Below, piece after piece: positions 39,184-53,409 of a stretch of DNA of 64,000 nt (its first letter is position 1; each line of letters opens with the position of its first letter). The notes under the pieces are model-generated. The model ran no database searches. It saw only the letters and a program-made list of their open reading frames with translations, and was not told the DNA's origin. A program made the translations under genes and the position numbers. The stretch comes from Ignavibacteriales bacterium (GTDB lineage Bacteria; Bacteroidota; Ignavibacteria; UBA10030), in NCBI GenBank assembly GCA_016192345.1, contig JACPUH010000012.1, forward strand, positions 5,342-69,341. Reading direction: 5' to 3'.

Positions 39184-39669
39184 TTACTCGGCCTTGACGC
39201 TGATCGACCGTATGTAATCAACCACGTATGCTATCTCCTTCTTGCTCATCCTCCCTCCCCACGATGGCATCAAGGGTGATCGATTAACGCCTCTTCCCCC
39301 CTGGCTCATGGTCTCAGCTACTCTCACATCGCTGAGGGCATTCATATATGCCACATCGGTAAAGTCTCTTGGCTTGGGGTCAAGGTTGAATGCGTTGAAG
39401 CCGTCGCCTTTTCCCTCCTCGCCGTGGCAAACCGAACAATACTTCAGATACAGATGTCTCCCTTGTCGCTGCTCATACGAAAGCAACCGGGACTCGGCAG
39501 CCTCGTCAACCTTCACCGACGTCTGGAGAGTATCTACGGTTTCATCCGCTTGCTGCGGCGTGGCCTCTTTTTCCTTGCAGCTCATCAGCAGCATGACGAA
39601 TGCTACGATAGCGAGAACATGGGTCATCAGATGGTACTCGACGTTATGACAGCTTGCGGGAGTTCTCAT
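39184..39669 (-). CDS. monoheme c-type cytochrome (class I), lipoprotein
   Basis: Single CSVCH heme-binding motif with downstream Met (LMPSWGG). Lipobox LLMSC. Start overlaps the stop of the upstream octaheme cytochrome gene (ATGA). Confidence 0.8.
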   Translation of the reverse strand: MRTPASCHNVEYHLMTHVLAIVAFVMLLMSCKEKEATPQQADETVDTLQTSVKVDEAAESRLLSYEQRQGRHLYLKYCSVCHGEEGKGDGFNAFNLDPKPRDFTDVAYMNALSDVRVAETMSQGGRGVNRSPLMPSWGGRMSKKEIAYVVDYIRSISVKAE

Positions 39670-41609
39670 TTCAAACTCATCAAGAAGACGGTGAGCGCTT
39701 CTGCCTCTTCGTCTGTCAAGTTGTTCTTCGGCTCGATTGTTTCAGGCTTGAATGCCTGCGGGTCCTTCAGCCAATGGAAAATCCAGCCGGGTTTGAGTCG
39801 CGAGCCGGCTTTGTCCAGTGCCGGTCCGACATATCCACCCTTGAGGTTGATCTGATGGCAAGCCTGACATCCGTATTTTTCATAGTACAGTATTTTGCCT
39901 TTGGCCATACTGTCTTGATCGACTCTTACCTCCCGTTCCACACTATCGGCGATGAACACTTTCTCCATGTAGTTGACCATCACCTTGATCTCGGCATCAG
40001 ACACGAACAGATTGGGCATCCGCTCCGGCAGGATAGGACGAAGCGAATATGGAATCTTGAAGTACTTCTCGATCCATTTCCTTTGCGCTTGACTTGCTTC
40101 AAGCGTCAAGTCGGTTGCTACGAGCCGGCCGCGCCCAAACATCGTGTGGCAGCCGAAGCAGGCAAGGTCGTCTACTAACTTCCCAAATTCCCCTTGTGGT
40201 GCGTAGGTGCTTCGCGGTTTTGGCTGGACCTTGAACTGCGCGGGAATTTCCTCCTCCGTACTGCCCAACAGTGCCACGGTGATCGCCTGAGCTTCTTCGT
40301 CTGTGAATTCATAGCTCGGCATCTTCATCGTGGGTGAAAAGACACGCGGACTTTTGACTTTTGTGAAAAGATATGAAGGAAGTGCCTGCTCGATGCTTGA
40401 CTTGCCAAAATCGATTTCATAGAGTTTTTTCGCGCCAATGGAGGTCAGGTCCGGCCCCATCTCTTCTGCCTTCGTCATCCCACCGAGTTCATGGCATCCG
40501 CTGCAGTTGTATTTCTTGAAGAGCGCACGACCTTTTTCGAAATAGGATGGGTCGGGAGTATGAGGAGGCCGTTCCTCCATTTCATAATCGACAAACTCAC
40601 TCTGGATAGAGGCAACAACGGCGGCCAGTTCTGTTTCGTTGAACCGATATCTCGGCATCTCGACACCCGGCTGCAATCGCTTTGGATTCTTCATATAACT
40701 ATAGAGCCATGCCGCATTGACTTTGCTGGCGACTTTACCGAGTTCTGTCGCGACGGTACCGCCCCGCCCGTTGATCGGGTGACAGCTGATACAGCGTGCT
40801 TCGCTCAAACGCGTCGCACCCAGTTCGGCAAGCTTCTCCCGCTGCGGTTCCGTCCCGGAGGTCAAAACCGCCGGAAGCCGATCGAGTGTTGCATCGCGGG
40901 GGAAGGTCTTCAACGTCATCAGGAAATCAGCTAGGATGTTCACCTCATCGTCGGTGAGAAAAAAATTTGGCATCCTCGTCTTCGCAAAATAAGCCTTTGG
41001 GTTTTTCAGCCAGTTGACGAGCCAGGAGCGATTAACCTTTGAGCCGATTCCGTCGAGGCTCGGCGTCCACTGTTTCTCAAACCCTTCCGTTCTGTGACAG
41101 GCTGCACAGTTCGATTCTTCGATGAGCTCTCGACCGAATGTGAGAATCGGGGCGCGCAGAACTTCTTTTTCCTTATGACACTTGCCGCACGACGCCTCCA
41201 TGAATTTGGTGGGGTACATCGGTTTGTCCCAGTATTCGACGTTGCCGACAGATCCCTTGTAGGTCGTCGCCGCGCCCTGACCTTCATGGCACACGGTACA
41301 TCCAAATTCCTCAAAGTCGTGATCGATCCGCGGGTGTGCGCGAAACGGTTGCCGGGCCTGTTGCAGTGCCGGTTCACTGAGACCGAGATGACACGTACCG
41401 CAACGGTCAATCCGGTCCAATCCCCGGACCCACAACTGCTTGATCCCGATCTCTGCGGGCTTCACCCTCCGGGGAAGTTCCGTAATGAGGCCGTTGTACT
41501 CATACTGGTACCATTTCCACTCGCGAAAGAAATCTTTCAACGGAGCAATCGCAAGGACAACGAAGAAAACGACACCGGAGAGTGCGAACGAGAGCCTGAG
41601 TTTAGTCAT
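39666..41609 (-). CDS. membrane-anchored octaheme c-type cytochrome (3 N-terminal hemes plus 5 class-I-like cytochrome c domains)
   Basis: N-terminal TM helix. Eight CxxCH motifs: CGTCH, CTVCH, CGKCH, CAACH, CISCH, CSGCH, CFGCH, CQACH. Repeated downstream RMPNF / EMPRY / KMPSY / RMPNL Met-ligand motifs. Occupies the cyt c1/f position of the bc operon. Confidence 0.85.
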   Translation of the reverse strand: MTKLRLSFALSGVVFFVVLAIAPLKDFFREWKWYQYEYNGLITELPRRVKPAEIGIKQLWVRGLDRIDRCGTCHLGLSEPALQQARQPFRAHPRIDHDFEEFGCTVCHEGQGAATTYKGSVGNVEYWDKPMYPTKFMEASCGKCHKEKEVLRAPILTFGRELIEESNCAACHRTEGFEKQWTPSLDGIGSKVNRSWLVNWLKNPKAYFAKTRMPNFFLTDDEVNILADFLMTLKTFPRDATLDRLPAVLTSGTEPQREKLAELGATRLSEARCISCHPINGRGGTVATELGKVASKVNAAWLYSYMKNPKRLQPGVEMPRYRFNETELAAVVASIQSEFVDYEMEERPPHTPDPSYFEKGRALFKKYNCSGCHELGGMTKAEEMGPDLTSIGAKKLYEIDFGKSSIEQALPSYLFTKVKSPRVFSPTMKMPSYEFTDEEAQAITVALLGSTEEEIPAQFKVQPKPRSTYAPQGEFGKLVDDLACFGCHTMFGRGRLVATDLTLEASQAQRKWIEKYFKIPYSLRPILPERMPNLFVSDAEIKVMVNYMEKVFIADSVEREVRVDQDSMAKGKILYYEKYGCQACHQINLKGGYVGPALDKAGSRLKPGWIFHWLKDPQAFKPETIEPKNNLTDEEAEALTVFLMSLK

Positions 41610-41612
41610 GAG

Positions 41613-42311
41613 TCAATAGATTCCTTCCCACGGCCATGTCCAGCCCCATTCCGGGCCGCGGAACAACGTGCCGATCGCAGTCAGAACCACCACGACCATC
41701 ACGAACCAGGTCATGACCCACCACGAAAGCGGCCGGTGACCAAGCCAGGCAATGAAACCATGCTCTCGTTTGATGAAATAGGGAGTGAGCATGAATCCTG
41801 TCATGATGAGTGTCGGCATGACCATTGCATAGACCTTGAAAAGAAGGAGGACGAGCGAAACAATCCCAACCGCGACGACAAGCGTCAGGAACGTCTCCCG
41901 CCGATGTTCTTTCCACAGGCCTTCGCGTTTGATGTTGATCTTAAAATAGGGGATGACGATCAGCGCCATGACAGCTAAGGCCGGGAGGATGACGCCGCCC
42001 ACAACCGGTGGAAAGTAGTGGAGCAGTTCTTGCAGTCCGAGAAAATACCATGGGGCTTTGGCGGGATTGGGCGTATGCTCGGGGTTGGCAATCCATTCCA
42101 GCGGTGCGTCGATGATGAGCGAAAGAACGGCGAGAAGAATGACCATGACTTCAAAAGCGATGATTTCCTTGACGACCAGGTTCGGGAAGGTCATCACCAT
42201 CTCCGCGTCTTCTTTCCTGACCCTCGCGGCCGTGCGCCCTTTGATGAATGCGATACGCGTCGGCACTTGTTTCGCGTCCCGTGTTTGTTCGACATTGAAA
42301 TCTTTACTCAT
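41613..42311 (-). CDS. cytochrome b6f-type subunit IV (C-terminal half of split cytochrome b)
   Basis: PEHTPNPAKAPWYFLGLQELLHYFP matches the cytochrome b C-terminal domain PEWYFL motif. Multiple TM helices. Confidence 0.8.
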   Translation of the reverse strand: MSKDFNVEQTRDAKQVPTRIAFIKGRTAARVRKEDAEMVMTFPNLVVKEIIAFEVMVILLAVLSLIIDAPLEWIANPEHTPNPAKAPWYFLGLQELLHYFPPVVGGVILPALAVMALIVIPYFKINIKREGLWKEHRRETFLTLVVAVGIVSLVLLLFKVYAMVMPTLIMTGFMLTPYFIKREHGFIAWLGHRPLSWWVMTWFVMVVVVLTAIGTLFRGPEWGWTWPWEGIY

Positions 42312-42322
42312 TCGCCTTTTCC

Positions 42323-42799
42323 CTAGAAGGAGGGGACGTTGAATGCAATCTCTTTCTCTAATAAACCCTGCATGCGATCCATGCGGCTACCAATGACCTT
42401 GACTAAGTTCCCCATCAAGACATGCCCCACATGATGCTTCCTGGCACAGAAGGAAAGCAGCCCTTTTCCGCGAACCTGGATCAACTCGCTCTCTTCATCG
42501 CAGTATGCGGACAAGGTAAACTGGTAGGGCTCGACGAGGGTGGACCAGCCAAAAACATTCCCTGGGATTACTACATCCACAACGATTTCCGTACTTGCGA
42601 GGAGGATAGGAATTGGAACACTGAGGTGCACTTTGCCTGAACGAACAACGTAGAACTGTTCGGCGCTCTCCCCTCTCTTGAAGATCGTAACTCCTTTTTT
42701 GAGCTTCACGATCGTGCAGAGTTCTGAAATTTGCCTGAGTTCCCTCGCCGTCAGTCCGCTGAAAAAGTTTATGCCCCCCAGAAAATGAGTGTCAACCAT
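42323..42799 (-). CDS. stand-alone cyclic-nucleotide-binding (cNMP/Crp-like) domain protein embedded in the bc-complex operon
   Basis: GLTARELRQISELCTIVKLKKGVTIFKRGESAEQFYVVRSGKV is a cNMP-binding beta-barrel signature. No DNA-binding HTH. Start taken at ATG 42799; the track ORF extends upstream. Confidence 0.55.
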   Translation of the reverse strand: MVDTHFLGGINFFSGLTARELRQISELCTIVKLKKGVTIFKRGESAEQFYVVRSGKVHLSVPIPILLASTEIVVDVVIPGNVFGWSTLVEPYQFTLSAYCDEESELIQVRGKGLLSFCARKHHVGHVLMGNLVKVIGSRMDRMQGLLEKEIAFNVPSF

Positions 42800-42999: not shown

Positions 43000-43710
43000 C
43001 TAGACTCCTCCATCTTTCCTCACACGCCAGAAATGAATGCCCATCAGCATGGTCGCCGCAACGGGCAGGACGAAGCAATGCAGCACGTAGAATCTGACAA
43101 GCGCATTCTCTCCAACAATATTGCCACCGAGCAACAGGAAAGAAATATTGTCCCCCACACCAAACGGAACTGCGCGCGCCATGTTCGTGCCAACCGAAAT
43201 TCCCCAGAACGCTAACTGGTCCCACGGGAGTAAATAACCCGTGTAGCTGAGCAGGATCGTGAATACAAGCAGCACAACGCCGATAACCCAATTGAACTCC
43301 TTCGGAGGCCGGTACGAACCAGTGTAGAATACCCGCAGCATGTGCAGGAACACCACCGCCACCATCGCATGGGCAGCCCAGCGGTGCATGTTCCGAAGGA
43401 ATTGTCCCGACGAGACGACATACTGCAAGTCCTTCATATCCCAATAGGCCTGAGGTACCGAAGGGCGATAGTACAACATGAGCAGTGCCCCGGTGACTGT
43501 CAGGACAATGAACAAGCCGAAGGAAAGTCCGCCAAGTCCCCACGTGTAGCTGAATTTGACGGAGCGCTTCCGGACTTTGGTGGGATGGATATGGAGGAAA
43601 AAGTTATAAAAGATCGCTTCTGCCCTTGTCCGGTTGGATTCGGGCAGCCCGTGACGAAACATCGAGCGCCATACTTGTGATGCGAACAATCGTTGCCAGA
43701 GGGATTTCAT
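43000..43710 (-). CDS. cytochrome b6 (N-terminal half of split cytochrome b)
   Basis: Four-helix heme-b domain with conserved His residues ([19 protein letters not shown]; VLHCF). PWDQLAFW motif. Track start is TTG; ATG at 43710. Confidence 0.85.
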
Positions 43711-43712
43711 TC

Positions 43713-44069
43713 TCAATCTCCGAACGCTGGTTCATGCTTTTCAAATCCGACGTGCGCTTCTTCCACAGCATCGATCACCAGGGGAAAATATCGGTCGAGA
43801 CCGCAGTCCAGCCGCGATCGCGTTGAGCATCTTCCATCCGGCGTTTGATGCCGGCACGCGGCACAAACATTCCGGCGAAGGGAGTCGACATACGGCTCAA
43901 TCCTGGGATCATGCACGGAAAGAATGGCTTGGACGATTCTCGGGAAATGAGCCTTCAATCCGCACTCTTCTTCGCCACTCAAGCGGCAGTGACCATGACG
44001 ATCGCTATCCACACAGTGGGCACAGACTCTGGACTGAACGGCATGCCAATACAGTTTGAAGATTTCCAT
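43713..44069 (-). CDS. small cysteine-rich protein of unknown function within the Rieske/cyt b operon
   Basis: 118 aa from ATG 44069, preceded by GGAGG SD. Two CxxC-x7/8-C motifs ([13 protein letters not shown]; [13 protein letters not shown]) plus two further Cys. No recognisable family. Confidence 0.45.
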
Positions 44070-44082
44070 GGTGAGTTCCTCC

Positions 44083-44574
44083 TTAGACTTTGAGAATGAC
44101 TTCCTCCCCAACCATCACCCCTTTGTCCACGACTAACTGTCCTTGCTCGTCAAGCGTCATGGCAAACCGCGGCAGTGGACGCGGCGCGGGGCCTTCGAGC
44201 ACGTTTCCCTCTTTGTCAAATTTGCTCCCATGGCAGGGACACGCAATAATCTCTTCTTCCGATTTCCAGTTCGTGATGCAACCGAGATGCGTGCAGACGG
44301 CGGACACTGCAGAGAAGTACCCTTCCTTGGCGCGAACGATAAAAACCTTCTGCTCTTTGTTGAGCGTGACACTCTCCGGCGGAAAATTCTCCGTCGGCCC
44401 GGCCCTGAATTTCAGCGGCGGCTCGCGCAACACGTTGGGTGAAAGAAATTGCCCCGTCAACACCGCGCTGCCGGCAGCGACGATTCCGATTGCGCCCCCC
44501 CCGATCGTCTCGAGAAAATAACGGCGGGTGAGGATTGAGCCTTCCGATTGCTCTTTCAGCGAATCTTCAGCCAT
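44083..44574 (-). CDS. Rieske [2Fe-2S] iron-sulfur protein, Tat-exported
   Basis: Twin-arginine signal RRYFLETIGG. Cluster-binding boxes CTHLGC and CPCHGS. AAGGAG SD upstream. Confidence 0.9.
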   Translation of the reverse strand: MAEDSLKEQSEGSILTRRYFLETIGGGAIGIVAAGSAVLTGQFLSPNVLREPPLKFRAGPTENFPPESVTLNKEQKVFIVRAKEGYFSAVSAVCTHLGCITNWKSEEEIIACPCHGSKFDKEGNVLEGPAPRPLPRFAMTLDEQGQLVVDKGVMVGEEVILKV

Positions 44575-44588: not shown

Positions 44589-46472
44589 TTAGACCGGGAC
44601 TGTTTCAGACACAGCGTACGCTTCCATGGTAATGCATCCGACCGGGCATCGCATCGCACACAGACCGCATCGGATACAGCGATCTTCATCTTTGATCATC
44701 ACGGAGCCGACGAGCTCCCCGGACTGCCCCTTCACCACGATGCGGTACTCGCTTTCAAGTTCGGCGAGCACAGTCCCTTCCGCTTCGATTCGAGTGAGCA
44801 CGACAAGATCGATGCAATTTTCGGGACAGATATCGACACAACCCCCGCAGAGGATGCATTCCGTCCCGGTTTCTTCACCCTCCGGTTCGAAGATCGTGTT
44901 TACCCAACAATGCAGGCAGCGCGAAGCCTCTTCGATCGCCTGCTCCTCCGTATACCCCAACTCAATCTGGGACACGCCGATGCGCCTGTCGATCGGCAGT
45001 ACAGGGATGGGAACCCTTTGGGTTTTCTCATATCCCCAACTGCGTTTATACTTCTTCGTATCGTACACGATAATCTCGGCTTCACGTTCGCTCAGAACGA
45101 GTTCGACCCCTTCGATCTTGTCCCTGGTGCAATAGTGGTGGATGGATCGTGCGGCTTTCTTGCCGTTCGCGACGGCATCGATTGCGTTCCGCGGACCGAA
45201 AGAGACATCCCCTCCGGCGAAGACACCCGGCGCGGTTGTGGCAAGAGTGGCAGGATCGACTTTGATGGTATTGCGTGGAGTAATCTCAATGCCGTCCCCG
45301 GGGTGAATCCACGAGAGATCGGATGTTTGACCGATGGCCATGATGACCGTGTCCGCATCCATGATCTTCTCAGTGTGCGGCGCAAATTTCGGGTTAAAGC
45401 GCCCATGGTCATCAAAGACCGATACGCAATCGACTGTTTCTAATCCCACGACTGCTCCATCTCTTCCGATAATTCTGTTCGGACCCCTCCGCGAGTGAAT
45501 CTCAATCCGTTCCTCTCTCGCCTCGGAAATCTCATCCGCGGAGGCCGGCATCTCTTTCCAATCCTCAAGGCACACCAGATGGACTTCCTTAGCGCCGAAG
45601 CGCACGGCAGACCGGGCCACATCCAACGCTTCCGCAACTTCCGTGACATGGCCGACCTCCACGCGCTCTTGCCGTGCCGCCGTCCGGGCGACATCCAGAG
45701 CCACGTTACCGCCACCGATCACGATGACCTTCTTTCCGAGCTCCACGCGGTATCCGAGATTGACGTTGAGCAGGAAATCCACGGCTCGCAGAACACCGTC
45801 AAGTTCCACGCCCTCGATTTGAAGATCGCGGCTTTTGTGTGCGCCAATCGCGATGAAGAAAGCCTGGAATCCTTGCCGCTGGAGATCCGTAAGGGAGAAA
45901 TCACGACCCACGGCGGCATTGAGTTTGAGTTCCACACCAAGACTGAGAATGGCATTGACCTCAAGCCGTATAAGCTCCCGGGGAAGACGATACTCCGGGA
46001 CGCCAAGGCGCAACATGCCGCCTGCCACCGACTGGGCTTCGAAGACGGTGACTTCGTAGCCGAGCAGGGCAAGATCATGGGCGCAGGAAAGTCCCGCCGG
46101 CCCCGCCCCCAACACAGCCACTTTTATCCGGTTTTTCCTGACTGACTTGCCGAAAACTTCTTTGAGCTTCTCCAAATCGAGCATGCTTTCCACACCGTAC
46201 CGCTCGCAGGCGAATCGTTTGAGCGCGCGGATGGCAATCGGCTGATCGAACTTCCCAAGACGGCACGCTCGCTCGCACGGTGCGGCGCAAATGCGTCCGC
46301 AGATTGATGCAAACGGATTGGGACGGCGGGCGACGTGATAGGCTTCCCGATAACGTCCCTCCTCAATCAGCGCAACATAGCGCCCTGCCTCGGTATGCAC
46401 GGGGCAGGCCGCCATGCAGGGAAAGTTGGAGTCAAGCCACTCAAGGTTTACGAATTTCAGTTGGTCCGGCAT
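44589..46472 (-). CDS. GltD-like (glutamate synthase small-subunit family) NAD(P)H:FAD oxidoreductase with N-terminal Fe-S Cys motifs and C-terminal 2x[4Fe-4S] ferredoxin domain
   Basis: N-terminal CMAACPVH...CGRICAAPCERAC. Two dinucleotide-binding folds (VAVLGAGPAGLSCA; VIVIGGGNVALDVA). C-terminal CILCGGCVDICPENC and CIRCGLCAMRCPVGC. 14 nt upstream of the Rieske gene. Confidence 0.75.
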   Translation of the reverse strand: MPDQLKFVNLEWLDSNFPCMAACPVHTEAGRYVALIEEGRYREAYHVARRPNPFASICGRICAAPCERACRLGKFDQPIAIRALKRFACERYGVESMLDLEKLKEVFGKSVRKNRIKVAVLGAGPAGLSCAHDLALLGYEVTVFEAQSVAGGMLRLGVPEYRLPRELIRLEVNAILSLGVELKLNAAVGRDFSLTDLQRQGFQAFFIAIGAHKSRDLQIEGVELDGVLRAVDFLLNVNLGYRVELGKKVIVIGGGNVALDVARTAARQERVEVGHVTEVAEALDVARSAVRFGAKEVHLVCLEDWKEMPASADEISEAREERIEIHSRRGPNRIIGRDGAVVGLETVDCVSVFDDHGRFNPKFAPHTEKIMDADTVIMAIGQTSDLSWIHPGDGIEITPRNTIKVDPATLATTAPGVFAGGDVSFGPRNAIDAVANGKKAARSIHHYCTRDKIEGVELVLSEREAEIIVYDTKKYKRSWGYEKTQRVPIPVLPIDRRIGVSQIELGYTEEQAIEEASRCLHCWVNTIFEPEGEETGTECILCGGCVDICPENCIDLVVLTRIEAEGTVLAELESEYRIVVKGQSGELVGSVMIKDEDRCIRCGLCAMRCPVGCITMEAYAVSETVPV

Positions 46473-46656
46473 AGGTCAACGATTCTGCTTCTAAATCTTT
46501 TGCCCGCGCACAGAGAGATCCAGAGCGCCACCGACTGCGGCGAACAGCAGGAGCCTCGCGATAAAACAAAGAGCCGTCGTCACCACCGCAGTTTGCCATC
46601 TTGACTCGTTCATTGGTTCCCGGCCCTCGCTCCCCCTGTTCAACCGCATTGGTTGC

Positions 46657-47253
46657 TTACTTCTTAACCTCAAAATTGACAATCACCTCTCCCTTGTCCG
46701 GCACTTCCACCGTGACGGATTCCCCTTTCAGCTTCTCGTGCCAAATCCTCAGCGTGTGTTTTCCCGGCGGGACATCTTTCACGGTGTAGCTCCCGTCCTT
46801 CTCACTGACCGCATAGTAGGGAGTTTCCATCACGAGGATGAAGGCTTCCATTTCAGGATGAACTTTGCACAGCATCACCGACGCACAGCCGGGATCCGTA
46901 AAGGTGAACGACCGCACCTGACCTTTCGGCCAGGTGCCAAGGTTGAATTTCTCGGCACACTTGTCGGGCGTAAAAACGTTGTGCAGGACATCGTCGCTGT
47001 TCAGATAGTCAACGGTGGATCCGACAACAACCGGAAGAATGTGAGGGATAAAAACGAGATTCTTCTGATCCATCGTTGCATGTTCTTTCGGCGGCTGGAA
47101 GGTCTTGCCGGGAATCTTATCGATGAAAATCACTGCATCTCCGCTGTGTTTTACCCCTCTTGCTTTTACCTTGCCCTTGATATCGCCCGCCATCAAACCG
47201 TCACTCCACGTCCATGCCAGGAGTGCTGTCATAACGATGAATAAGGCCCTCAT
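46657..47253 (-). CDS. secreted type-1 (blue) copper protein, amicyanin/pseudoazurin-like cupredoxin, with C-terminal beta-sandwich extension
   Basis: Signal peptide. FIPHILPVVVGSTVDYLNSDDVLHNVFT and CKVHPEM give a His...Cys-x2-His-x2-Met type-1 Cu site, spaced as in amicyanin CTPHPFM. Confidence 0.7.
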   Translation of the reverse strand: MRALFIVMTALLAWTWSDGLMAGDIKGKVKARGVKHSGDAVIFIDKIPGKTFQPPKEHATMDQKNLVFIPHILPVVVGSTVDYLNSDDVLHNVFTPDKCAEKFNLGTWPKGQVRSFTFTDPGCASVMLCKVHPEMEAFILVMETPYYAVSEKDGSYTVKDVPPGKHTLRIWHEKLKGESVTVEVPDKGEVIVNFEVKK

Positions 47254-47410
47254 ACATCACCCTTTCAGTAATTGTGTTTTTTTAAAAGAGAGGAGGCGAG
47301 AAAATCATTCGACAGTGATTGTTCCACCGTCTGTGACTTCCTCAGGCTCCGCTCTCCCATCCTTCATGAAATTCCAGGTACCCTGGTGTCCGGGTGGTTG
47401 CGCATCACGG

Positions 47411-48661
47411 TCATATACCGAAATTGAATTGAAGCGTAAAGGTATCCCGCTTCTTGTTCGCCTCGTCGAGGAATTTTTTGAATTCAAACACCAGCTTGAC
47501 GTTGGCACGCGCCATCACGGTAACGCCGGGGATGAGTGCATTCACCGGTTTCACCAGGTCCGCATCGGTATCCCGGTCCTCCCATTCGTACCGCACGAGG
47601 CCGATCAGCCACGGGTAGAACACATAGTTTCCCTGGGCATAATACACCATGGATGATCTGTCCGCGGTTCCGTCGATCGTTGAATTCATGAGCATCAGCG
47701 CTCCGTTGACGACGAAACGGTTGTACCAAAAATCGACATCCCCGCCAAGCACCGTGAAGTCCTCATCCAACGCGTTCGCCCTCGAGGCGGTGCCCTTATA
47801 GAAGAAGGCTCCGAGCGTCACCGAATTATCGAGATAGAATTCCGACGCCTGACTCTCGGCCCCCTCTGTGCCTCCGATTTCACCGAGCCCTCCGATTTTA
47901 TACGTTGCCTTGCCATAGAGATCTTTTTGAGGATTGATGTCGGTCAATCCCTGGCCGTTCACGATGCCGAGACGATAGGTAAACCCGCCACGATCGCCCG
48001 CGCCATTGGCAGCGCCCCACACTTCGAGTCCGTTATGATCATCGCGGAACCGCCATCCATTCCGACTTCGAAAGCTCGCCATGTTGTAGTGATTCCGTGT
48101 GAGCCGGAGATGCGTGGGTGTTGGATCGGCATGCGCCATCCCCACTCGGATGTGAAAACCGGGGCTGAAATCATACTGTAGGGCGAACGGGAAGGCGATT
48201 TCGGTCTCGTTGGCTTCATTCTCAACCTCGAGCTCCCCGAAGAACGAAAAGTTCTCGCCAATAGTGCCTCCATAGAGAAATTCAAGCTCATGCGGTATTT
48301 CCAGGCTCCACTTCACATTGGCGATGGCTGCATATTCGATTCGACCGATAGCCCAGATACCGATGGGGATCGTGCCGGGAATGTCGGCAGGCCAGATGGC
48401 GTCGGGCCAAACTCTCTTGTAGCCTTCCGATCCTATGCTGACCGGCTCTTCTTTCGTCATTTCAGGGTCCGTACCTCCCGGATAGCGATATCCGTTGTTC
48501 TTGAACGCTTTCCCGAAAGCATTGAGCATGGGAGCGGCATAGTGGCAGGTGCTGCAGCTCGTCTTGTACTTGCGCGAGAACGATGGAATGGCATAGACGT
48601 GCTCCGCAGCGATCGCCATGACCAGAATAATGAGGACTACCGTTGCAACAAGCGTTTTCAT
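47411..48661 (-). CDS. Cyc2-like fused monoheme cytochrome c - outer-membrane beta-barrel porin
   Basis: Signal peptide (VYA cleavage) followed at once by CSTCH heme motif (FSRKYKTSCSTCHYAAPMLNAFG). The remaining ~370 aa show amphipathic beta-strand periodicity and end in an aromatic-rich terminus (FTLQFNFGI). AGGAGG SD upstream. Confidence 0.55.
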   Translation of the reverse strand: MKTLVATVVLIILVMAIAAEHVYAIPSFSRKYKTSCSTCHYAAPMLNAFGKAFKNNGYRYPGGTDPEMTKEEPVSIGSEGYKRVWPDAIWPADIPGTIPIGIWAIGRIEYAAIANVKWSLEIPHELEFLYGGTIGENFSFFGELEVENEANETEIAFPFALQYDFSPGFHIRVGMAHADPTPTHLRLTRNHYNMASFRSRNGWRFRDDHNGLEVWGAANGAGDRGGFTYRLGIVNGQGLTDINPQKDLYGKATYKIGGLGEIGGTEGAESQASEFYLDNSVTLGAFFYKGTASRANALDEDFTVLGGDVDFWYNRFVVNGALMLMNSTIDGTADRSSMVYYAQGNYVFYPWLIGLVRYEWEDRDTDADLVKPVNALIPGVTVMARANVKLVFEFKKFLDEANKKRDTFTLQFNFGI

Positions 48662-48698: not shown

Positions 48699-49079
48699 TT
48701 AGGGTTTACCGTTCATGTGAAGACACGTTCTTACAGCATCCCGAAGCTTATTGAGTTCCAAGGGCTTCAGAAGAAAATAATCGGCGCCATACGTCTTCGC
48801 CGCTGCCTCGGTGATACGATCGGGATAACCGGTGATGACGATAACCGGAAGCTTGGGATGAATCGCCTTGACGTGAAGAAGAAGGGTGACACCGGAGTGG
48901 AGCTTCAATCGCACGTCGGTGACAAGGAGATCTACACGATGGCCTTCGAGCTTCTGAAGGGCTTCTTCGGCGCTCGTCACCCCGATCATGCTGCAATTCT
49001 CCCTCCGTAAGAAATCCTCAAATGCAGCAAGAATATTATGGTCGTCGTCTATCACCAGCACGGTCGGTTGACTGGACAT
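48699..49079 (-). CDS. stand-alone response-regulator receiver (CheY-like) protein
   Basis: TVLVIDDDHNIL...VDLLVTDVRL...KLPVIVITGY receiver motifs; no output domain. ATG at 49079 (track start is TTG). Ends 37 nt before the Cyc2-like gene start. Confidence 0.8.
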   Translation of the reverse strand: MSSQPTVLVIDDDHNILAAFEDFLRRENCSMIGVTSAEEALQKLEGHRVDLLVTDVRLKLHSGVTLLLHVKAIHPKLPVIVITGYPDRITEAAAKTYGADYFLLKPLELNKLRDAVRTCLHMNGKP

Positions 49080-49275
49080 CCCTACCCCTCTCGTCAATCC
49101 CCTTCTTTATTCAAGAGGCGTACCACGACGGCATGATAAGGCAAGACTGCGAGATTGAGCCGAATTGGGCGAAATGGTCAAACGGTGCGGGGGAAAAAAC
49201 GAGGAAGTGCCAAGGGGGACTTGGCAGTCTGCAAAGCGGGACTTGTCACCGGGAGATCGGTACAACGAGGCAGGA

Positions 49276-50676
49276 TTAACCCCTGAAGGACTTCGCTTTG
49301 ATATCGTGCTTCGACATCAGTCGCTGAAAATTTTGCCGGGTCATGCGGGAACCCTTGGCGGCAGCGGTCACATTACCGTGGTATTTCCGTAAGAGCTCCG
49401 AGACAAACTGGCGCTCGAACATCTGAAGGAGATTAATTCGGGACTTCCCGAAATTCTCACTCATCATGGGCAGCGAAGGAGATCGGACCGACGTATCAAG
49501 AACTGGTTCCTGCAGTGCGTCGGGAAGAATCACGTCACCTTTTGTTAACATCACGGCGCGTTCAAGAAGGTTTTCGAGTTCACGAACGTTTCCCGGATAA
49601 GGGTACGTTTGGAGAAATGTCATCGCTTCGTCTGAAAAACCTGCGACCGACTTTTTGAGCTGTCTGTTGTATTTCATCAGGAAATAGTTGGCAAGATGGG
49701 AAATATCTTCGTTCCTCTCCCGCAGGGGCGGCAGATTGACCGTGACGACCTTCAACCGGAAAAAGAGATCCTCTCTGAAATTTCCGTTCTTCATCTCTAA
49801 TTCGATATCGTGGTTGGTCGCGCAAACAAATCGCCCCCCAACGCGGATGGCAGTGTTCCCCCCCAGGCGTTCAAACTCACGCTCTTGCAGGACTCTCAAA
49901 AGCTTTTGCTGGAGATGCGGCGAGAGGTTCCCAATCTCATCAAGAAAAATCGTCCCCTCCTGGGCGATTTCGAACTTCCCGAGCTTGCGCTCTCCTGCAC
50001 CTGTAAACGCTCCTTTTTCGTGTCCAAACAGCTCCGATTCGAGTAACGGCTCGGGAAGCGCCGTACAGTCAATGGGAACGAACGGTTGGTGGGCGTTGGG
50101 GCTCGCATTGTGAATCGCCCTCGCAACGAGTTCCTTCCCGGTTCCACTTTCACCGAGAATCAGGATCGAGGTGTGATTCGGAGTTGTCGAAATCGATCCG
50201 ATGAGCTTATACACCTCTTGCATCGGGGCGCTCCTGCCGATCAGTTCGTACCGATCGGCCATGTCCCCATGGTATTGACCATGACGGCCTGCCATGGAAG
50301 ATGTTCTGCCAGTGCTGGCCAATGCCTCGCGAGTGACGGCGCGGATCTTGCCGACATCCAGCGGTTTCGTAAGATATTCGAATGCGCCAAGTTGAATTGC
50401 CTTAATGGCTGTTTGCATCGTACCATAGCCGGTGATGATCACGATGGGCATACGCTCGTCTTGCGTTTTCATCTGTTTCAGCACTTCGAGTCCGTCGACC
50501 TTCGGCATCGTGATGTCCATGAACACCACGCCAGGATGATCCGAGGAGATTTTCTTCAACGCCTCCTGTCCATCCCGCGCGAGGACGGTCTTGTACCCGT
50601 CCTTCCGCAGAACTTCGCGGAATGCAAAGAGAATTTTCGGATCATCGTCCACAACCAGCACTGTTGGTTTCTTCAT
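49276..50676 (-). CDS. sigma-54-dependent transcriptional regulator, NtrC family (receiver + AAA+ + Fis-HTH)
   Basis: Receiver domain. AAA+ sigma54-activator domain with GESGTGKELVARAIH and GAFTGA-like motif. C-terminal HTH. Confidence 0.9.
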   Translation of the reverse strand: MKKPTVLVVDDDPKILFAFREVLRKDGYKTVLARDGQEALKKISSDHPGVVFMDITMPKVDGLEVLKQMKTQDERMPIVIITGYGTMQTAIKAIQLGAFEYLTKPLDVGKIRAVTREALASTGRTSSMAGRHGQYHGDMADRYELIGRSAPMQEVYKLIGSISTTPNHTSILILGESGTGKELVARAIHNASPNAHQPFVPIDCTALPEPLLESELFGHEKGAFTGAGERKLGKFEIAQEGTIFLDEIGNLSPHLQQKLLRVLQEREFERLGGNTAIRVGGRFVCATNHDIELEMKNGNFREDLFFRLKVVTVNLPPLRERNEDISHLANYFLMKYNRQLKKSVAGFSDEAMTFLQTYPYPGNVRELENLLERAVMLTKGDVILPDALQEPVLDTSVRSPSLPMMSENFGKSRINLLQMFERQFVSELLRKYHGNVTAAAKGSRMTRQNFQRLMSKHDIKAKSFRG

Positions 50677-53183
50677 ACTCCCATACCATTGGTGATCGGC
50701 AGGTAGATCTTGAACATCGCACCCCCGGCTTGTGAACGTTTGACGGTCACAATGCCTCCGTGCGCATTCACCGTCTGCTTCACCATCGGTAGACCAAGAC
50801 CCGTCCCGTTCGTCTTTGTCGTAAAGAAAGGATCAAAGATGCGACCGATGATCGTTGTGGGGATCCCCGAACCTGTATCGGTCACCTCGACGAGCGCGCA
50901 TGCCGTGCCTTTCTGAAGAACAATTTCCACACCGGCCCGGCCGTCCTTGTTTTGATTACCATCGTAGAGATGGGTAAACGTGAAATCGTGCAGTGTTTCA
51001 CGAAGGATGATTTTCTTCGTCGCGATGGACACGATTTCTTCCTTCGCACGCGCCGGCTTGCTTTCAATGGCCTGGGCTGCATTGAACAAGATGTTCACAA
51101 CGACTTCCTTGAATCGCTGGGTGTCGAGCGGCAGGTTGGAGAGGGTCGGGTCAAGTGTTTGCTGCACATGGATTCGTTCCTTGTTCAAGTGCGGTTTCAC
51201 GAAGTCGAGGCTGTCGTTGATGATTTTATTCAGATTGGCTGTCTGAAACTGAAGCGGCGAGGGTCTGGCAAAACTTAAGAGATCGGCAACAATCTGCTCC
51301 ATGTGGTAAATTGAGTTGAGTGCGACACGCAGGGATTTCTTGTCGGAACGGCTCAGCTGCTTCGATTCACTGTGAAGCTGTAAGATCATCTTGATGGAGG
51401 TCAGGGAGTTCCGAAATTCATGGGCAATAAGAGCCGACATTTCGCCGGTCGCCATCAGCCGCTCCGTCCGGAGAAGATGCTGTTCGAGCCGCTTTCGCTC
51501 CGTCACGTCGGTGATGATCTCGAGAATGGCATGAAGGTCTCCCTCTTTTTTCAGCGGGATTGCCGCATGCTCGATATAGCGGTCCCCACGACCCGTACCG
51601 GCAATGTGGTCGATGTGGCTCGCTATTCTTCCCGAGGATACTGCGATCCTTGAGACACATTGGTGACAGAACCCGCCTTCGCAAAATATCGTCGCACAAT
51701 CCTTCCCACGGACATTGTCGAGCTGCAACCCCGTGATCGATCCAAAGGCGGCGCTTGCCGTTTGAATGCGGTAGTCTTTGTCCAGGAGAACGAAGGCGCT
51801 TGGCACATTGTCGAGAATCGCCTGCAGCTTCGTCTTCTCTTCGGTAAGTTCCTTGGTACGGACTTGCACCAATTCTTCAAGCCTTGTTCGGTGCTGCTGG
51901 ATCTCCTCCTCACGGGCCTCAAGGGACGCAGCCATGAAATTAAACTGCTCTCCGAGTTTCTCAATCTCATCATGGGTCTCAACGTTCAGCCGGTGGTGAT
52001 AATTTCCCCGGGCAATCGTTTCCGCCCCTTGCTGCAACGCAGCGATCGGCTTTGTGAACTGTTGCGTTGCAATCAGGCCCAGTCCGATCGCGACGCCGAG
52101 AAAAAGCATGAGAAAGGCGGCAAACATCCATGCAAAGGAAGACGCAGGTCCGAGGACCACATGGTTGGGGACACTTTCAAACACGTAGAACGGCACGGAA
52201 AACGATGTGAAAGATTGATTGGCCGATAGCGCTGCTCCCCCAAAGAGAGGAGCATAGGCGATGATTTCATCGATTCCTTCCGACACAATTCCACTGTTCC
52301 CGGAAAGCACGGAATCCACCACCGCCGCTGGATAATCGTGCTGGAGATTATCGTCTTCCCGCGACGCCAGGAGTTTATTCCATTCTGTTTTCTTTTCACT
52401 ATGGTAGAGGTAATGGCCATCTCCGCTGACGAGAACTGTTTTCCCGTTGAGGCTGAAATGTCTCGGGGTTTCCATGATGAGGAAGAGATCCTTTGCGAAG
52501 ACATTGGCTACGAGCAATCCTGCTCGTTTTCCCGGCACATCGGGTTTCTCACCTTGACGAGCGAGCGGCGTCACAAAACTGATAATAGGGATGCGCTCAT
52601 TGCTCTGGCTCACGAGCTCTGCCGCCGTGAAGGCTAGTGCATTGGGCTGAAGACCCTCTGCAAGCAGGAAATAAAACGACTCTCGTCCCGCCCGGAGTTC
52701 TTGAGCCGGGACAACCCGATAGCGCTGCATGGAGTCGGGTGCGTCCGTGCTCTCACCACGGATCACTTCATCCCCTGTTTCACTGATAATGCGGAGCTGA
52801 TAATAAATCCCCTTTGTCCGTAACCACGCCAGAAGCTCGTCATTCAATCGCCCGGACACACGATCACCCTGGCGCAAGCTGGAAGAGCTCAAAGCTTGCA
52901 CATACCCCTGAAGCGATGGGGAATTCTTCAACAACCGGAGGTCACTCTCGACATTGGTAAGAAAATTTGCGGTCTTCTCGCGTATGGTACGAACGTCGTG
53001 CGAGAGGTTTTCGTACGCAATCTCCTTCATCATGCTGACGTTTGAGAAAATGCCGTGAAGGCCAAGCACGACAACGGGGATAATGGAAAGACCGGCAAAC
53101 GCGATAATGAGCTTGCTGCGGATGGAAAGCCAGGGGAATATGCTGTTGAGGTTGATCAAGGAGTGCGCCCTACGGTCACTCAT
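50673..53183 (-). CDS. sensor histidine kinase (periplasmic sensor domain, HAMP, PAS, HisKA, HATPase)
   Basis: TM - ~300-aa periplasmic domain - TM. H-box EMSALIAHEFRNSL. ATPase G-boxes (DTGSGIP, GTGLGL). Stop overlaps the NtrC start. ATG at 53183 (track start is GTG). Confidence 0.85.
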   Translation of the reverse strand: MSDRRAHSLINLNSIFPWLSIRSKLIIAFAGLSIIPVVVLGLHGIFSNVSMMKEIAYENLSHDVRTIREKTANFLTNVESDLRLLKNSPSLQGYVQALSSSSLRQGDRVSGRLNDELLAWLRTKGIYYQLRIISETGDEVIRGESTDAPDSMQRYRVVPAQELRAGRESFYFLLAEGLQPNALAFTAAELVSQSNERIPIISFVTPLARQGEKPDVPGKRAGLLVANVFAKDLFLIMETPRHFSLNGKTVLVSGDGHYLYHSEKKTEWNKLLASREDDNLQHDYPAAVVDSVLSGNSGIVSEGIDEIIAYAPLFGGAALSANQSFTSFSVPFYVFESVPNHVVLGPASSFAWMFAAFLMLFLGVAIGLGLIATQQFTKPIAALQQGAETIARGNYHHRLNVETHDEIEKLGEQFNFMAASLEAREEEIQQHRTRLEELVQVRTKELTEEKTKLQAILDNVPSAFVLLDKDYRIQTASAAFGSITGLQLDNVRGKDCATIFCEGGFCHQCVSRIAVSSGRIASHIDHIAGTGRGDRYIEHAAIPLKKEGDLHAILEIITDVTERKRLEQHLLRTERLMATGEMSALIAHEFRNSLTSIKMILQLHSESKQLSRSDKKSLRVALNSIYHMEQIVADLLSFARPSPLQFQTANLNKIINDSLDFVKPHLNKERIHVQQTLDPTLSNLPLDTQRFKEVVVNILFNAAQAIESKPARAKEEIVSIATKKIILRETLHDFTFTHLYDGNQNKDGRAGVEIVLQKGTACALVEVTDTGSGIPTTIIGRIFDPFFTTKTNGTGLGLPMVKQTVNAHGGIVTVKRSQAGGAMFKIYLPITNGMGV

Positions 53184-53409
53184 GCCGTCACAGAACACAT
53201 CGCTTTCTACAAACGGTATGCCCGACCTCCAAGGTGTGCACTCAAGTGAGCAACCCGCAATCTGGCCCGCACATACGCCCTATAACGATCAGGGTAGGCT
53301 TTACTCCCAGCCAATATAATTCTCGGTTCTGAGAATGGAGGTGAGTGTTCTTCTCAGAAGTGAACATGGCGCGTGTTACAAAATTCGCTCTCCTCCCAAA
53401 AGCGAGGCC

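Follow-up and report, generated by a model that had tools for sequence, protein, structure and literature searches.

The window analysed here is a 64-kb stretch of DNA from an Ignavibacteriales bacterium, in which a run of genes, all of those described below being on the minus strand, encodes from upstream to downstream a set of two-component regulators, a 416-aa protein with a single haem-binding motif, a secreted copper protein and a complex-III-type operon. The two central ORFs lie where the initial annotation had placed them.

The cytochrome-porin and the neighboring cupredoxin

The 416-aa protein (47411..48661) begins with a hydrophobic leader (MKTLVATVVLIILVMAIAAEHVYA, followed by IP), which we recognized by inspection as a secretion signal from Lys2, a 14-residue hydrophobic core and a VYA-IP junction; its residues 2-18 form a helix in an AlphaFold2 model. 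The leader gives way to the stretch AIPSFSRKY-KTS-CSTCH-YAA-PML, read according to a published motif definition (PMC8406198), and then to a barrel of about 16 predicted strands. The only CxxCH (CSTCH, C36-H40) is found at about residue 12 of the mature protein, in agreement with the earlier proposal of a signal peptide and a single CSTCH within about 15 residues of the mature N-terminus. In an alignment of 38 homologues reaching down to 51% identity C36, C39 and H40 are invariant, and one CxxCH occurs in 78 of the 81 retrieved loci, two of the remaining three being cut or mis-started ORFs. The haem motif is thus retained in the orthologues, and it is evidently not a chance match. Together with about 30 flanking residues it is the most conserved part of the porin, and this segment is invariant across phyla.

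The loci were retrieved with a pattern derived from the AXPXFAR[Q/K][T/Y] motif of Keffer 2021, to which the family consensus AIPAFARKY is an exact match; the window copy, AIPSFSRKY, agrees at 6 of the 7 specified positions, with Ser for Ala, and would not pass the strict regular expression by which sequences were filtered in that study. The PXL motif is likewise seen four residues past the CXXCH (H40-YAA-P44-M-L46), with P44 and L46 invariant. DSSP assigns 17 strand segments to residues 100-415 of the AlphaFold2 model (pLDDT 71.7, pTM 0.72), a number consistent with a 16-strand barrel having one kinked strand, as had been anticipated for the region after the haem motif. The best structural match of this barrel is an anion-selective porin, and it resembles OprP, placing it with the OprO/OprP type. 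The haem domain (residues 21-97) is modelled at low confidence, as expected without the cofactor.

While the protein matched no Pfam or NCBIfam family, and a profile search of PDB sequences returned nothing meaningful, an hhalign comparison of the homologue profile with Cyc2 of the A. ferrivorans rus operon, an orthologue of the assayed A. ferrooxidans protein, gave a probability of 96.4% (E 1.3e-9, 151 columns). An hmmsearch against Acidithiobacillus Cyc2 scored 33 bits, confined to the N-terminal domain. The sole match in a tblastn search against plasmids was a Methylocystis Cyc2-like N-terminus, a second proteobacterial example of the FARQT type. Given the agreement between the signature motif, the fold and the profile homology to Acidithiobacillus Cyc2, we assign the protein with high confidence to the Cyc2 family of fused monohaem cytochrome-porins, upholding the architecture that the initial annotation had claimed for it.

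The next gene (46657..47253) encodes a 198-aa product with a signal peptide, a cupredoxin fold and the four ligands of a type-1 copper site, namely H91 and the C129-x2-H132-x2-M135 constellation, all of which are invariant in 33 homologues. This bears out its description as a secreted type-1 copper protein. Its comparison with amicyanin stands for the Cys-x2-His-x2-Met site with its short amicyanin-like loop; the protein itself is not an amicyanin, scoring 18.9 bits against the equivalog cut-off of 110.2 (TIGR02657), and the window contains no mau genes or methylamine dehydrogenase. Similarly, the parallel with rusticyanin survives only as a functional analogy, no homology being detectable on aligning the cupredoxin profile with A. 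ferrivorans rusticyanin (hhalign probability 1.3%). The fold, the His and Cys-x2-His-x2-Met ligands and the short loop are shared with proteins of the amicyanin, plastocyanin and pseudoazurin type, but the classical members of this group lack the transthyretin/carboxypeptidase-regulatory-like domain inside which the window cupredoxin is nested.

The downstream operon and the upstream regulators

Between the cupredoxin gene and the operon that follows it lies a possible 40-aa single-helix membrane ORF (46491..46613), an uncertain feature whose N-terminus, MxESRWQ, is conserved in three other loci (L003, L051 and L052). The operon opens with a gene for a cytoplasmic NAD(P)/FAD-binding Fe-S flavoprotein (44589..46472), which is GltD/NfnB-like and has a C-terminal 2x[4Fe-4S] domain (Pfam Pyr_redox_2, Fer4_20 and Fer4_7; NCBIfam PRK12771, 440 bits). 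It is followed by a Rieske [2Fe-2S] subunit (44083..44574; Pfam Rieske) with a CPCHGSKF box, in which Ser and Phe are as in Kustd1480. The best two PDB sequence matches of this subunit are 9rk4 (1.6e-26) and 9rk3 (2.6e-21), corresponding to Kuste4569 and Kustd1480 respectively (PMC12954380), which outscore every b6f and bc1 Rieske protein. Cytochrome b is split into a b6-like four-helix subunit (43000..43716; NCBIfam ExtP 283.9 bits, with a cut-off of 290; cytochrome b6 191.7 bits) and a subunit-IV-like C-terminal membrane subunit (41613..42311; ExtQ 60.2 bits, with a cut-off of 150), the L001 homologue of which matches Cytochrom_B_C. The operon closes with a membrane-anchored octahaem cytochrome c with eight CxxCH motifs and an N-terminal helix (39666..41609; its domain-level ExtS match passes the cut-off) and a monohaem cytochrome c, detected by its CxxCH and by NCBIfam (39184..39669). 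The latter is probably a lipoprotein, given its LLMSC lipobox, and weakly resembles Leptospirillum cytochrome 579, with a score well short of the cut-off (NF033864, E 1.7e-6).

Two further genes are inserted among these. One encodes a Cys-rich 118-aa protein (43713..44069) with a duplicated CxxC...C...CGL motif and no Pfam or NCBIfam match, a lineage-specific insert that among the retrieved loci is seen only in L003, L004, L005, L016, L019, L053 and L072. The other encodes a cyclic-nucleotide-binding-domain protein (42323..42799) with weak NCBIfam matches, whose L022 homologue matches Pfam cNMP_binding and which is missing from the equivalent position in the 93%-identical contig L003. The Rieske protein, b6-like cytochrome b, SUIV-like subunit, octahaem c and NAD(P)-binding Fe-S flavoprotein constitute the gene set of an anammox-type operon.

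On the other side of the Cyc2 gene Pfam searches recovered a single-domain response regulator (48699..49097; Response_reg, 3.1e-23), with a true start that is probably the ATG near 49079, a sigma-54-dependent response regulator combining REC, AAA+ sigma-54 activator and HTH_8 domains (49276..50676), and a sensor histidine kinase with dCache, HAMP, PAS, HisKA and HATPase domains, the PAS domain bearing a Cys-rich motif (50673..53198). Among the 61 loci with room for such genes upstream of the Cyc2 gene, the kinase is represented by a homologue in 40 and the sigma-54 response regulator in 48, and the single-domain regulator recurs at about -0.9 kb in a subgroup from Ignavibacteria/Bacteroidota. 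The kinase and the sigma-54 regulator presumably control the module. Scanning the window for sigma-54 promoters yielded 12 matches where 9.2 were expected, among them one 2-mismatch site at 49110-49125, and a -24/-12-like site precedes the Cyc2 gene in 13 of 77 loci as against 3-4 of 77 in controls; these weak scans are no more than suggestive of a sigma-54 promoter upstream of the Cyc2 gene.

Conservation of the gene neighborhood and relationship to known systems

In about 80 uncultured bacteria belonging to about a dozen phyla the Cyc2 and cupredoxin genes adjoin those of a quinone-linked membrane complex. In 69 of 73 loci the gene immediately after that of Cyc2 encodes the cupredoxin, and genes for a Rieske protein and cytochrome b come after them in 41 of 47. 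An ACIII-like set stands in for the Rieske/cytochrome b genes in 8 loci, and the octahaem c comes after it in 4 of these, which are all those whose contigs reach that far (35% identity, 4.7e-129). This recurrent association and the exchange of one complex for another indicate that the Cyc2/cupredoxin pair is likely to be functionally linked to the quinone-linked complex; the linkage to the bc operon noted in the initial annotation is therefore no coincidence of one genome. The NAD(P)-flavoprotein is encoded in 35 of the 41 Rieske/cytochrome b loci and is missing from the other 6 and from all ACIII-type loci, which argues that it is not essential to the role of the pair. The smallest conserved unit, in L079, comprises only the kinase, Cyc2 and the cupredoxin. 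Additional genes for copper handling are present in some loci and encode a second cupredoxin, a CcoG-like protein or a CuA-like cupredoxin-cytochrome c fusion.

All the matches are from metagenome-assembled genomes (MAGs), and the carriers include Ignavibacteriota, Bacteroidota, Calditrichota, Zixibacteria, Latescibacterota, Fidelibacterota, Eisenbacteria, Gemmatimonadota, Acidobacteriota and others, the hosts being mostly heterotrophic members of the FCB group, Acidobacteriota and Gemmatimonadota. These relatives were sampled in Fe-rich aquifers, deep mines, fens and vent chimneys. L039 is from Dive96, a sample of a study in which such proteins, from the same phyla, were assigned to cluster III Cyc2 and their hosts regarded as putative chemolithoheterotrophic iron oxidisers (PMC9769843). 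For another (L009, from MAG DeMMO6_2) a specific FeGenie call was not traceable in the supplementary tables of the DeMMO paper. The host of the window itself looks like a starch-degrading organoheterotroph from its gene content, and neither carbon-fixation genes nor a terminal oxidase were found within the 64 kb. While relatives have thus already been named cluster III Cyc2, we found no description of the module, or of the synteny of Cyc2, cupredoxin and complex III, in the open full-text literature covered.

The closest known family is Cyc2, as typified by Acidithiobacillus ferrooxidans Cyc2, Leptospirillum Cyt572 and Mariprofundus Cyc2 PV-1 and divided into clusters 1-3 (McAllister 2020, Keffer 2021). 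The window protein shares with it the signal peptide, the single N-terminal CxxCH, the AxPxF[A/S]R[K][Y] and PxL motifs, a length of about 400-480 aa, an OprP-like barrel of about 16 strands, and profile homology over the cytochrome domain and first strands; however, its barrel cannot be aligned with that of Acidithiobacillus Cyc2 beyond about 150 residues. The function of the clade to which it belongs is putative. The Acidithiobacillus iron pathway is encoded by the rus operon (cyc2-cyc1-cox-rus) and the petI bc1 operon, and in neutrophilic iron oxidisers electrons are modelled to pass from Cyc2 to Cyc1 and then to ACIII or bc1 (PMC5566968). The window has in common with these pathways an outer-membrane Cyc2, a periplasmic cupredoxin and/or cytochrome c and a complex-III-type enzyme, and the exchange of ACIII-like for Rieske/cytochrome b sets across the loci matches the neutrophile model with its alternative of ACIII or bc1. 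It differs in that all the components are in a single cluster, with Cyc2 beside a cupredoxin and a complex-III-type enzyme rather than cyc1 and aa3 oxidase genes, in the absence of an oxidase and of sequence relationship between its cupredoxin and rusticyanin, and in having a direct NAD(P) module instead of reverse electron flow through complex I.

The complex itself is most like Kuste4569-4574 and Kustd1480-1485 of the anammox bacterium Kuenenia, with which it shares a single operon for a Rieske protein, b6-like cytochrome b, SUIV-like subunit and NAD(P)-binding Fe-S flavoprotein, and a hexa/octahaem c instead of cytochrome f/c1. For the Rieske protein this likeness is one of sequence, including the CPCHGS box, whereas for the flavoprotein and cytochrome b it is one of published description (PMC12954380). 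In contrast to the Kuenenia complexes, the window operon has no HAO-like octahaem subunit, occurs outside Planctomycetota and is genetically coupled to an outer-membrane cytochrome-porin and a cupredoxin.

The Geobacter extHIJKLMNOPQS cluster similarly encodes an OprP-like porin with a Rieske/cytochrome b complex and multihaem cytochromes, and the ExtP, ExtQ and ExtS models match the window cytochrome b, SUIV-like subunit and octahaem c. Membership in this system was rejected, as ExtP and ExtQ fall short of their cut-offs and only the domain-level ExtS match passes. A rhodanese, a selenoprotein cytochrome and the 10- and 12-haem cytochromes are all missing from the window cluster, and the ext cluster in turn has neither a cupredoxin nor an NAD(P) module. 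In the paper on the ext cluster, which is linked to outward electron transfer and to selenite/tellurite reduction, ExtI is only called porin-like and the cytochromes are listed separately.

Possible directions of electron flow

The gene content suggests that electrons are exchanged between the cell surface and the respiratory chain, in either direction, with Fe(II) uptake as the likeliest function. We lean slightly towards the view that the pair forms the outer half of a conserved respiratory module, in which an Fe(II)-type reductant is oxidised at the porin and its electrons reach the complex-III-type enzyme; that an inward flow of Fe(II)-derived electrons indeed takes place we rate as an even chance. 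Such a module would comprise the Cyc2-family cytochrome-porin in the outer membrane, the type-1 copper protein in the periplasm, c-type cytochromes on the periplasmic face, represented by the inner-membrane-anchored octahaem protein and the monohaem lipoprotein, and a quinone-interacting inner-membrane complex, here the anammox-type Rieske/cytochrome b enzyme with its cytoplasmic NAD(P)-binding flavoprotein. The haem at the porin would oxidise dissolved Fe(II) or a similar soluble reductant, and the electron would pass by way of the cupredoxin and the c-type cytochromes, acting as a high-potential periplasmic pool, to the complex-III-type enzyme. From there it could be driven uphill into the menaquinone pool, a route suggested for bc1 or ACIII of iron oxidisers, or else go to a terminal oxidase or reductase whose gene lies elsewhere. 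Potentials near +200 to +400 mV are usual for type-1 copper sites having an axial Met. The Rieske proteins Kustd1480 and Kuste4569 were measured at above +300 mV (PMC12954380). Given the axial-Met copper site and a Rieske protein resembling these two, the periplasmic chain is probably of high potential, so that electrons from Fe(II) would enter it downhill, while their delivery to Fe(III) oxides would be uphill. Fe(II) oxidation is the activity of every Cyc2 protein assayed biochemically, one of them a cluster-3 member from an anaerobic neutrophile (PMC13647500), and the function of cluster 3 is regarded as the least certain (PMC8406198).

A difficulty for inward flow comes from the anammox bacteria, which provide the sole published model for NAD(P)-linked Rieske/cytochrome b complexes. 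In this model quinol is the donor, NAD(P)+ is reduced, and the periplasmic multihaem chain is a sink and not a source (PMC12954380). Applied to the window complex it would send electrons towards the cupredoxin and Cyc2. The proposal in the initial annotation that electrons taken up from outside feed NAD(P)+ reduction is hard to reconcile with this model, and the NAD(P) module is in any case optional. We also counted against inward flow the matches to the Ext models, the heterotroph-like content of the window with no carbon fixation or oxidase nearby, and the low-confidence haem domain.

If the flow were outward, menaquinol would be oxidised by the Rieske/cytochrome b complex with bifurcation of its electrons, one passing via the b haems and Fe-S clusters to NAD(P)+, and the high-potential branch running through the Rieske protein, octahaem c and cytochrome c/cupredoxin to exit through the Cyc2-type porin, which would act as a terminal reductase for a soluble oxidant of high potential, for example Mn(III) complexes, chelated Fe(III) or an oxyanion. 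We consider this unlikely, though it is the foremost of the alternatives. The operon architecture matches that of the anammox complexes, down to the closest relatives of the Rieske protein and their Ser-containing box, FeGenie allows iron reduction for cluster 3 Cyc2, and both the cytochrome b score on ExtP, from a cluster tied to Fe(III) and selenite/tellurite reduction, and the anion-selective porin as best match of the barrel are in keeping with it. However, every assayed Cyc2 is an Fe(II) oxidase, Fe(III) oxides could not be reduced by a chain at about +300 mV at neutral pH, solid acceptors would be out of reach of a buried single haem, and the NAD(P) module is dispensable among the loci. 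Moreover, NAD(P)H formation by these complexes is hypothetical even in the anammox bacteria, as is quinol-driven bifurcation (PMC12954380).

A rather improbable reading is that the cupredoxin and cytochromes form a periplasmic high-potential hub with no energy-conserving extracellular transfer, an ordinary branch leading to an oxidase, NirK or NosZ encoded elsewhere, and that the Cyc2-like porin has a side role, for example in Fe(II) detoxification, redox sensing or metal handling. Electron donation to Cu-nitrite reductase, N2O reductase and oxidases is a common role of cupredoxins and c-type cytochromes, and the apparently organoheterotrophic host, the extra copper-handling genes of some loci and the minimal unit of L079 could be accommodated by such a hub. 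Yet the porin and cupredoxin are very tightly paired, and the pair keeps its place beside two unrelated quinone-linked complexes, which argues that the porin is integral to the electron chain and not a bystander. As for an ordinary porin with a CxxCH by chance and an unrelated copper protein adjoining it, the want of a Pfam family or of a solved structure matched by sequence might have favored this reading, but it is refuted by the cross-phylum invariance of the haem motif and its flanks, the profile homology to real Cyc2 and the conserved synteny, and we give it practically no weight.

Cyc2 is the main genetic marker from which iron oxidation is inferred in metagenomes, and its cluster 3 is both the least understood and common in heterotrophic bacteria of sediments and aquifers. 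One large Cyc2 clade is seen here to be locked to a cupredoxin and either a Rieske/cytochrome b or an ACIII-like complex, beside a sigma-54 two-component system. Until now the unusual NAD(P)-linked Rieske/cytochrome b architecture had been a topic of work on anammox bacteria; it is widespread elsewhere. The locking of the clade to these partners gives a concrete hypothesis with a small set of expressible parts, namely Cyc2, the cupredoxin and the octahaem cytochrome c, and settling the direction of flow would change how Cyc2 matches in non-autotrophs are read in iron-cycling surveys. There is a small chance, a shade below that given to outward flow above, that an anammox-type bifurcating complex makes NAD(P)H from menaquinol and exchanges the high-potential electron with the outside via the cupredoxin and cluster-3 Cyc2, reversibly or outwardly; if so, NAD(P)H-producing variants of complex III would not be an anammox peculiarity but a widespread, undescribed device.

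A Cyc2-family haem-porin and the neighbouring copper protein

Pfam and NCBIfam scans assigned the 416-aa haem-porin (window positions 47411-48661, minus strand) to no family, and a search of PDB sequences recovered no sequence relative. All of its 689 relatives in the protein collection are annotated as hypothetical, and a family profile run against 1.84 billion cluster representatives retrieved 3,551 clusters at E<=1e-3. When 38 homologues sharing as little as 51% identity were aligned, the best-conserved stretch proved to be the mature N-terminus, AIPAFARKYKTSCSTCHYAFPxLNxFGKAFKNNGYRYP, in which the haem Cys pair and the His of the CxxCH are invariant. Cyc2 proteins are typified by AXPXFAR[Q/K][T/Y] just before a single CXXCH, an upstream motif unique to them, and by PXL four residues after it, and their porin part has been modelled on OprO/OprP as a 16-strand barrel (Keffer et al., PMC8406198). 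Both motifs are matched exactly by the consensus of the haem-porin family, the window protein itself showing one conservative change in the upstream motif (PSFSRKY). As a reference Cyc2 we used the first gene of an Acidithiobacillus ferrivorans rus operon, located via rusticyanin, which reads ALPSFARQTGWSCAACHTSYPQL. The family profile aligned with it in hhalign (probability 96.4%, E 1.3e-9, 151 columns) over the cytochrome domain and first strands, and scored 33 bits in HMMER; a protein from a Methylocystis plasmid, whose motif is of the FARQT form, scored 42 bits. The Cyc2 architecture proposed in the initial annotation was borne out in that a barrel is predicted C-terminal to the haem motif, the nearest homologues carry CxxCH rather than being haem-less porins, and the orthologues retain the haem motif. 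On these sequence comparisons the haem-porin is a Cyc2-family protein.

As a kind of protein it is not new, and existing tools would already flag it. Cyc2 homologues, mostly of cluster III, have been reported from Southwest Indian Ridge chimneys in Calditrichota, Eisenbacteria, Gemmatimonadota, Acidobacteriota and Bacteroidota, their carriers being proposed as chemolithoheterotrophic iron oxidisers; one of our comparison loci (L039) is from an isolate of Dive96, a sample of that study (PMC9769843). FeGenie-based surveys have likewise found iron-oxidation genes in Ignavibacteriales and Zixibacteria, predominantly Cyc2 cluster 3 at the sites surveyed.

The adjacent 198-aa copper protein (46657-47253, minus strand) has a signal peptide, invariant His91, Cys129, His132 and Met135, and a conserved Cys99/Cys123 pair. 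Its relatives are annotated as plastocyanin by JGI and as carboxypeptidase regulatory-like domain proteins by NCBI. The earlier description of its site as amicyanin-like is fair for the ligand loop, while membership of the amicyanin family was rejected (18.9 bits against an NCBIfam cut-off of 110). Its suggested analogy to rusticyanin stands as a functional conjecture only, as hhalign found no detectable relation between the sequences (probability 1.3%).

Gene order in the window and across phyla

The genes of interest all lie on the minus strand, from ~53.2 kb to 39.2 kb of the window. The series opens with a dCache/HAMP/PAS histidine kinase (50673-53198), a sigma-54-dependent response regulator (49276-50676) and a single-domain receiver (48699-49097), which precede the Cyc2 and cupredoxin genes. 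The PAS domain of the kinase bears a C-x4-C-x4-C-x2-C motif at residues ~500-515 (CATIFCEGGFCHQC), and its C...CxxC core is retained in many orthologous kinases adjoining Cyc2 genes, which hints at a metal- or redox-sensing cofactor. Directly upstream of this kinase we noted by eye a Ser/Thr protein kinase of 986 aa whose long C-terminal region is rich in TPRs (53681-56641, minus strand). A sigma-54-like -24/-12 element, TGGTACGCCTCTTGAA (49110-49125, minus strand), lies ~30 nt ahead of the probable start of the receiver gene; with two mismatches it is not statistically distinguishable from chance in the window.

At the DNA level the module, by which we mean the Cyc2 gene with the cupredoxin, c-type cytochromes, quinone-linked membrane complex and adjoining regulators, shares ~93% identity with a contig named 'Ignavibacteria bacterium UBA6688' (L003), which places the host among the uncultured Ignavibacteria. 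The remainder of the window is given to the use of starch and maltodextrin, along with TonB receptors and cargo of type IX secretion. Positions 405-38635 encode GH97, two GH57 proteins, GH13 amylases and CBM20 proteins, together with a MalK-type ABC transporter and a regulator of the LacI type, interspersed with Por_Secre_tail cargo, PorV and a TonB-dependent receptor, indicating that the host, judged from the window, looks like an organoheterotroph.

The strongest result of the analysis is the synteny. One genome per species was scanned, yielding 553 relatives, of which the 79 best loci, with two more found by contig look-up, were examined by tblastn with the window proteins. All come from metagenome-assembled genomes or uncultured single cells, sampled in aquifers, deep mines, fens, soils and hydrothermal sites, and they span Ignavibacteriota, Bacteroidota, Calditrichota, Zixibacteria, Latescibacterota, Fidelibacterota, Eisenbacteria, Glassbacteria, Gemmatimonadota, Acidobacteriota, Deferrimicrobium, Desulfobacterales and Nitrospinae. 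Cyc2 has the cupredoxin gene immediately 3' of it in 69 of the 73 loci with room for it, and Rieske and cytochrome b genes follow downstream in 41 of the 47 with at least 6 kb of downstream sequence; the NAD(P) flavoprotein is present in 35 of these 41 and absent from six. Upstream of Cyc2, the sigma-54 regulator was found in 48 and the kinase in 40 of 61 loci. Minimal loci retain just the kinase, Cyc2 and cupredoxin.

Eight loci (L012, L020, L021, L033, L036, L037, L041, L060) have, in place of the Rieske/cytochrome b genes, a set resembling alternative complex III (ACIII), made up of a multihaem protein of the c7 type, a molybdopterin-fold protein, a 4Fe-4S protein and a membrane protein of the NrfD type. 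In all four loci whose contigs are long enough, this set is followed by a gene homologous to that for the octahaem cytochrome c of the window (35% identity, 4.7e-129). This exchange of enzymes with the octahaem protein kept points to a constant core of Cyc2, cupredoxin and octahaem c, to which interchangeable quinone-interacting enzymes are joined. Such a pattern would be expected if the Cyc2/cupredoxin pair exchanges electrons with the quinone pool, and it parallels published models of iron oxidisers, where Cyc2, together with a periplasmic carrier, is joined to ACIII or bc1 (PMC5566968). The searchable literature yielded no description of the near-obligatory pairing of Cyc2 with this two-domain cupredoxin, nor of a single cluster uniting Cyc2 with a sigma-54 two-component system and a Rieske/cytochrome b or ACIII-like enzyme.

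Some genomes carry two diverged copies of the module (L004 and L066, L054 and L064, L006 and L019), with Cyc2 copies 78% and 33% identical to that of the window. L004 and L066 are whole modules in tandem on one contig (JACQVI010000070.1), one with the NAD(P) flavoprotein and the other without. Some loci (L017 12098-15431, L022 12438-15813, L035 12166-15407) have extra genes 3' of the cupredoxin, among them one for a further cupredoxin-like protein, one for a fusion of a CuA-like cupredoxin with cytochrome c, and one for a 496-aa CcoG-like membrane protein with a Fer4_5 domain, possibly a cupric reductase.

An inner-membrane complex of the anammox type

Downstream of the cupredoxin, on the same strand, the gene at 44589-46472 encodes a GltD/NfnB-type NAD(P)/FAD Fe-S flavoprotein of 627 aa, and that at 44083-44574 a Rieske protein. 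Further along are genes for a b6-like cytochrome b (43000-43716), a membrane protein resembling subunit IV (41613-42311) and a membrane-anchored cytochrome c with eight CxxCH motifs (39666-41609). The top two PDB matches of the Rieske protein, ahead of every b6f/bc1 Rieske, were 9rk4 (1.6e-26) and 9rk3 (2.6e-21), which correspond to Kuste4569 and Kustd1480. In the anammox bacterium Kuenenia these are the Rieske subunits of two Rieske/cytochrome b complexes that contain an NAD(P) oxidoreductase (PMC12954380). The complexes combine a b6-like cytochrome b and a subunit-IV-like subunit with a hexa- or octahaem cytochrome c and a cytoplasmic, Fe-S-containing NAD(P) oxidoreductase (PMC12954380). The window operon has the same architecture, and its Rieske box, CPCHGSKF, shares the Ser/Phe arrangement of Kustd1480. 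By these likenesses in sequence and gene content we assign the window complex to the anammox type; we found no description in the searchable literature of this NAD(P)-linked architecture across many non-anammox phyla. The cytochrome b also scored just below the cut-off of the NCBIfam model for Geobacter ExtP (283.9 against 290), and the subunit-IV-like protein and octahaem c gave hits to the ExtQ and ExtS models. The Geobacter Ext cluster includes an OprP-like porin and is tied to Fe(III) and selenite/tellurite reduction.

Several smaller genes accompany the operon, again on the minus strand. The cytochrome b and subunit-IV genes are separated by one for a cyclic-nucleotide-binding-domain protein (42323-42799); the equivalent site in the UBA6688 contig holds only ~200 bp, and this gene is therefore a recent insertion, with relatives at other positions in L004, L018, L022 and L067. 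A 118-aa Cys-rich protein with a duplicated CxxC...C...CGL...FP motif is encoded between the Rieske and cytochrome b genes (43713-44069). It has no family match, was seen only in an Ignavibacteria/Bacteroidota subgroup (L003, L004, L005, L016, L019, L053, L072), and could serve either as a regulator or as an additional subunit that binds a metal or an Fe-S cluster. Between the cupredoxin and flavoprotein genes, a 40-aa ORF (46491-46613) encodes a single hydrophobic helix and has an N-terminal MxESRWQ conserved in L003 (a longer form of ~69 aa), L051 and L052. The last gene (39184-39669) encodes a monohaem cytochrome c lipoprotein. Its match to Leptospirillum cytochrome 579, which serves the cluster-3 Cyc2 homologue Cyt572 as periplasmic partner, is weak (NF033864, E 1.7e-6; 27.9 bits, where the cut-off is 280).

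Direction of electron flow

Every assayed Cyc2 is an Fe(II) oxidiser, including the cluster-3 protein of a neutrophilic anaerobe expressed in E. coli (PMC8406198, PMC13647500), which favours an inward flow of electrons. The single haem buried in a small barrel, suited to a dissolved substrate, and the iron-rich suboxic habitats of the hosts favour it too. High potentials are typical both of type-1 copper sites with an axial Met and of Rieske proteins like that of the window; transfer from Fe(II) to such centres is downhill and transfer from them to Fe(III) minerals uphill, which again argues for inward flow. The Rieske potentials in Kuenenia lie above +300 mV (PMC12954380).

A simple inward reading is weakened by the uncertainty of cluster 3, the least certain part of the Cyc2 tree (PMC8406198), which FeGenie labels as possible iron reduction and finds in iron reducers, as well as by the heterotrophic look of the hosts and the dispensability of the NAD(P) module across the family. 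It is weakened too by the scheme argued for Kuenenia, in which quinol drives a bifurcation that sends one electron to NAD(P)+ and its fellow to a favourable acceptor in the periplasm (PMC12954380), so that quinol feeds the NAD(P) module and the periplasmic chain serves as sink. A route running outward, linked to bifurcation and leaving the cell through Cyc2, would follow that scheme, and we rank it second, as less likely than inward flow. Less probable still is an ordinary periplasmic respiratory branch with the porin in a side role. The initial annotation had proposed an iron-oxidiser-like chain feeding NAD(P)+ reduction, which is only partly coherent: the identity and coupling of the parts hold, but since the anammox scheme runs from quinol, the same Rieske/cytochrome b complex could not, by analogy, be a straightforward route for raising electrons from Fe(II) to NAD(P)+.

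What is established is the identity of the module's parts and their evolutionary coupling, and the mechanism beyond these we infer. With modest confidence we favour inward flow, in which Fe(II) or a soluble donor would be oxidised at Cyc2 and its electrons would pass to a high-potential periplasmic pool coupled to a dedicated complex III.
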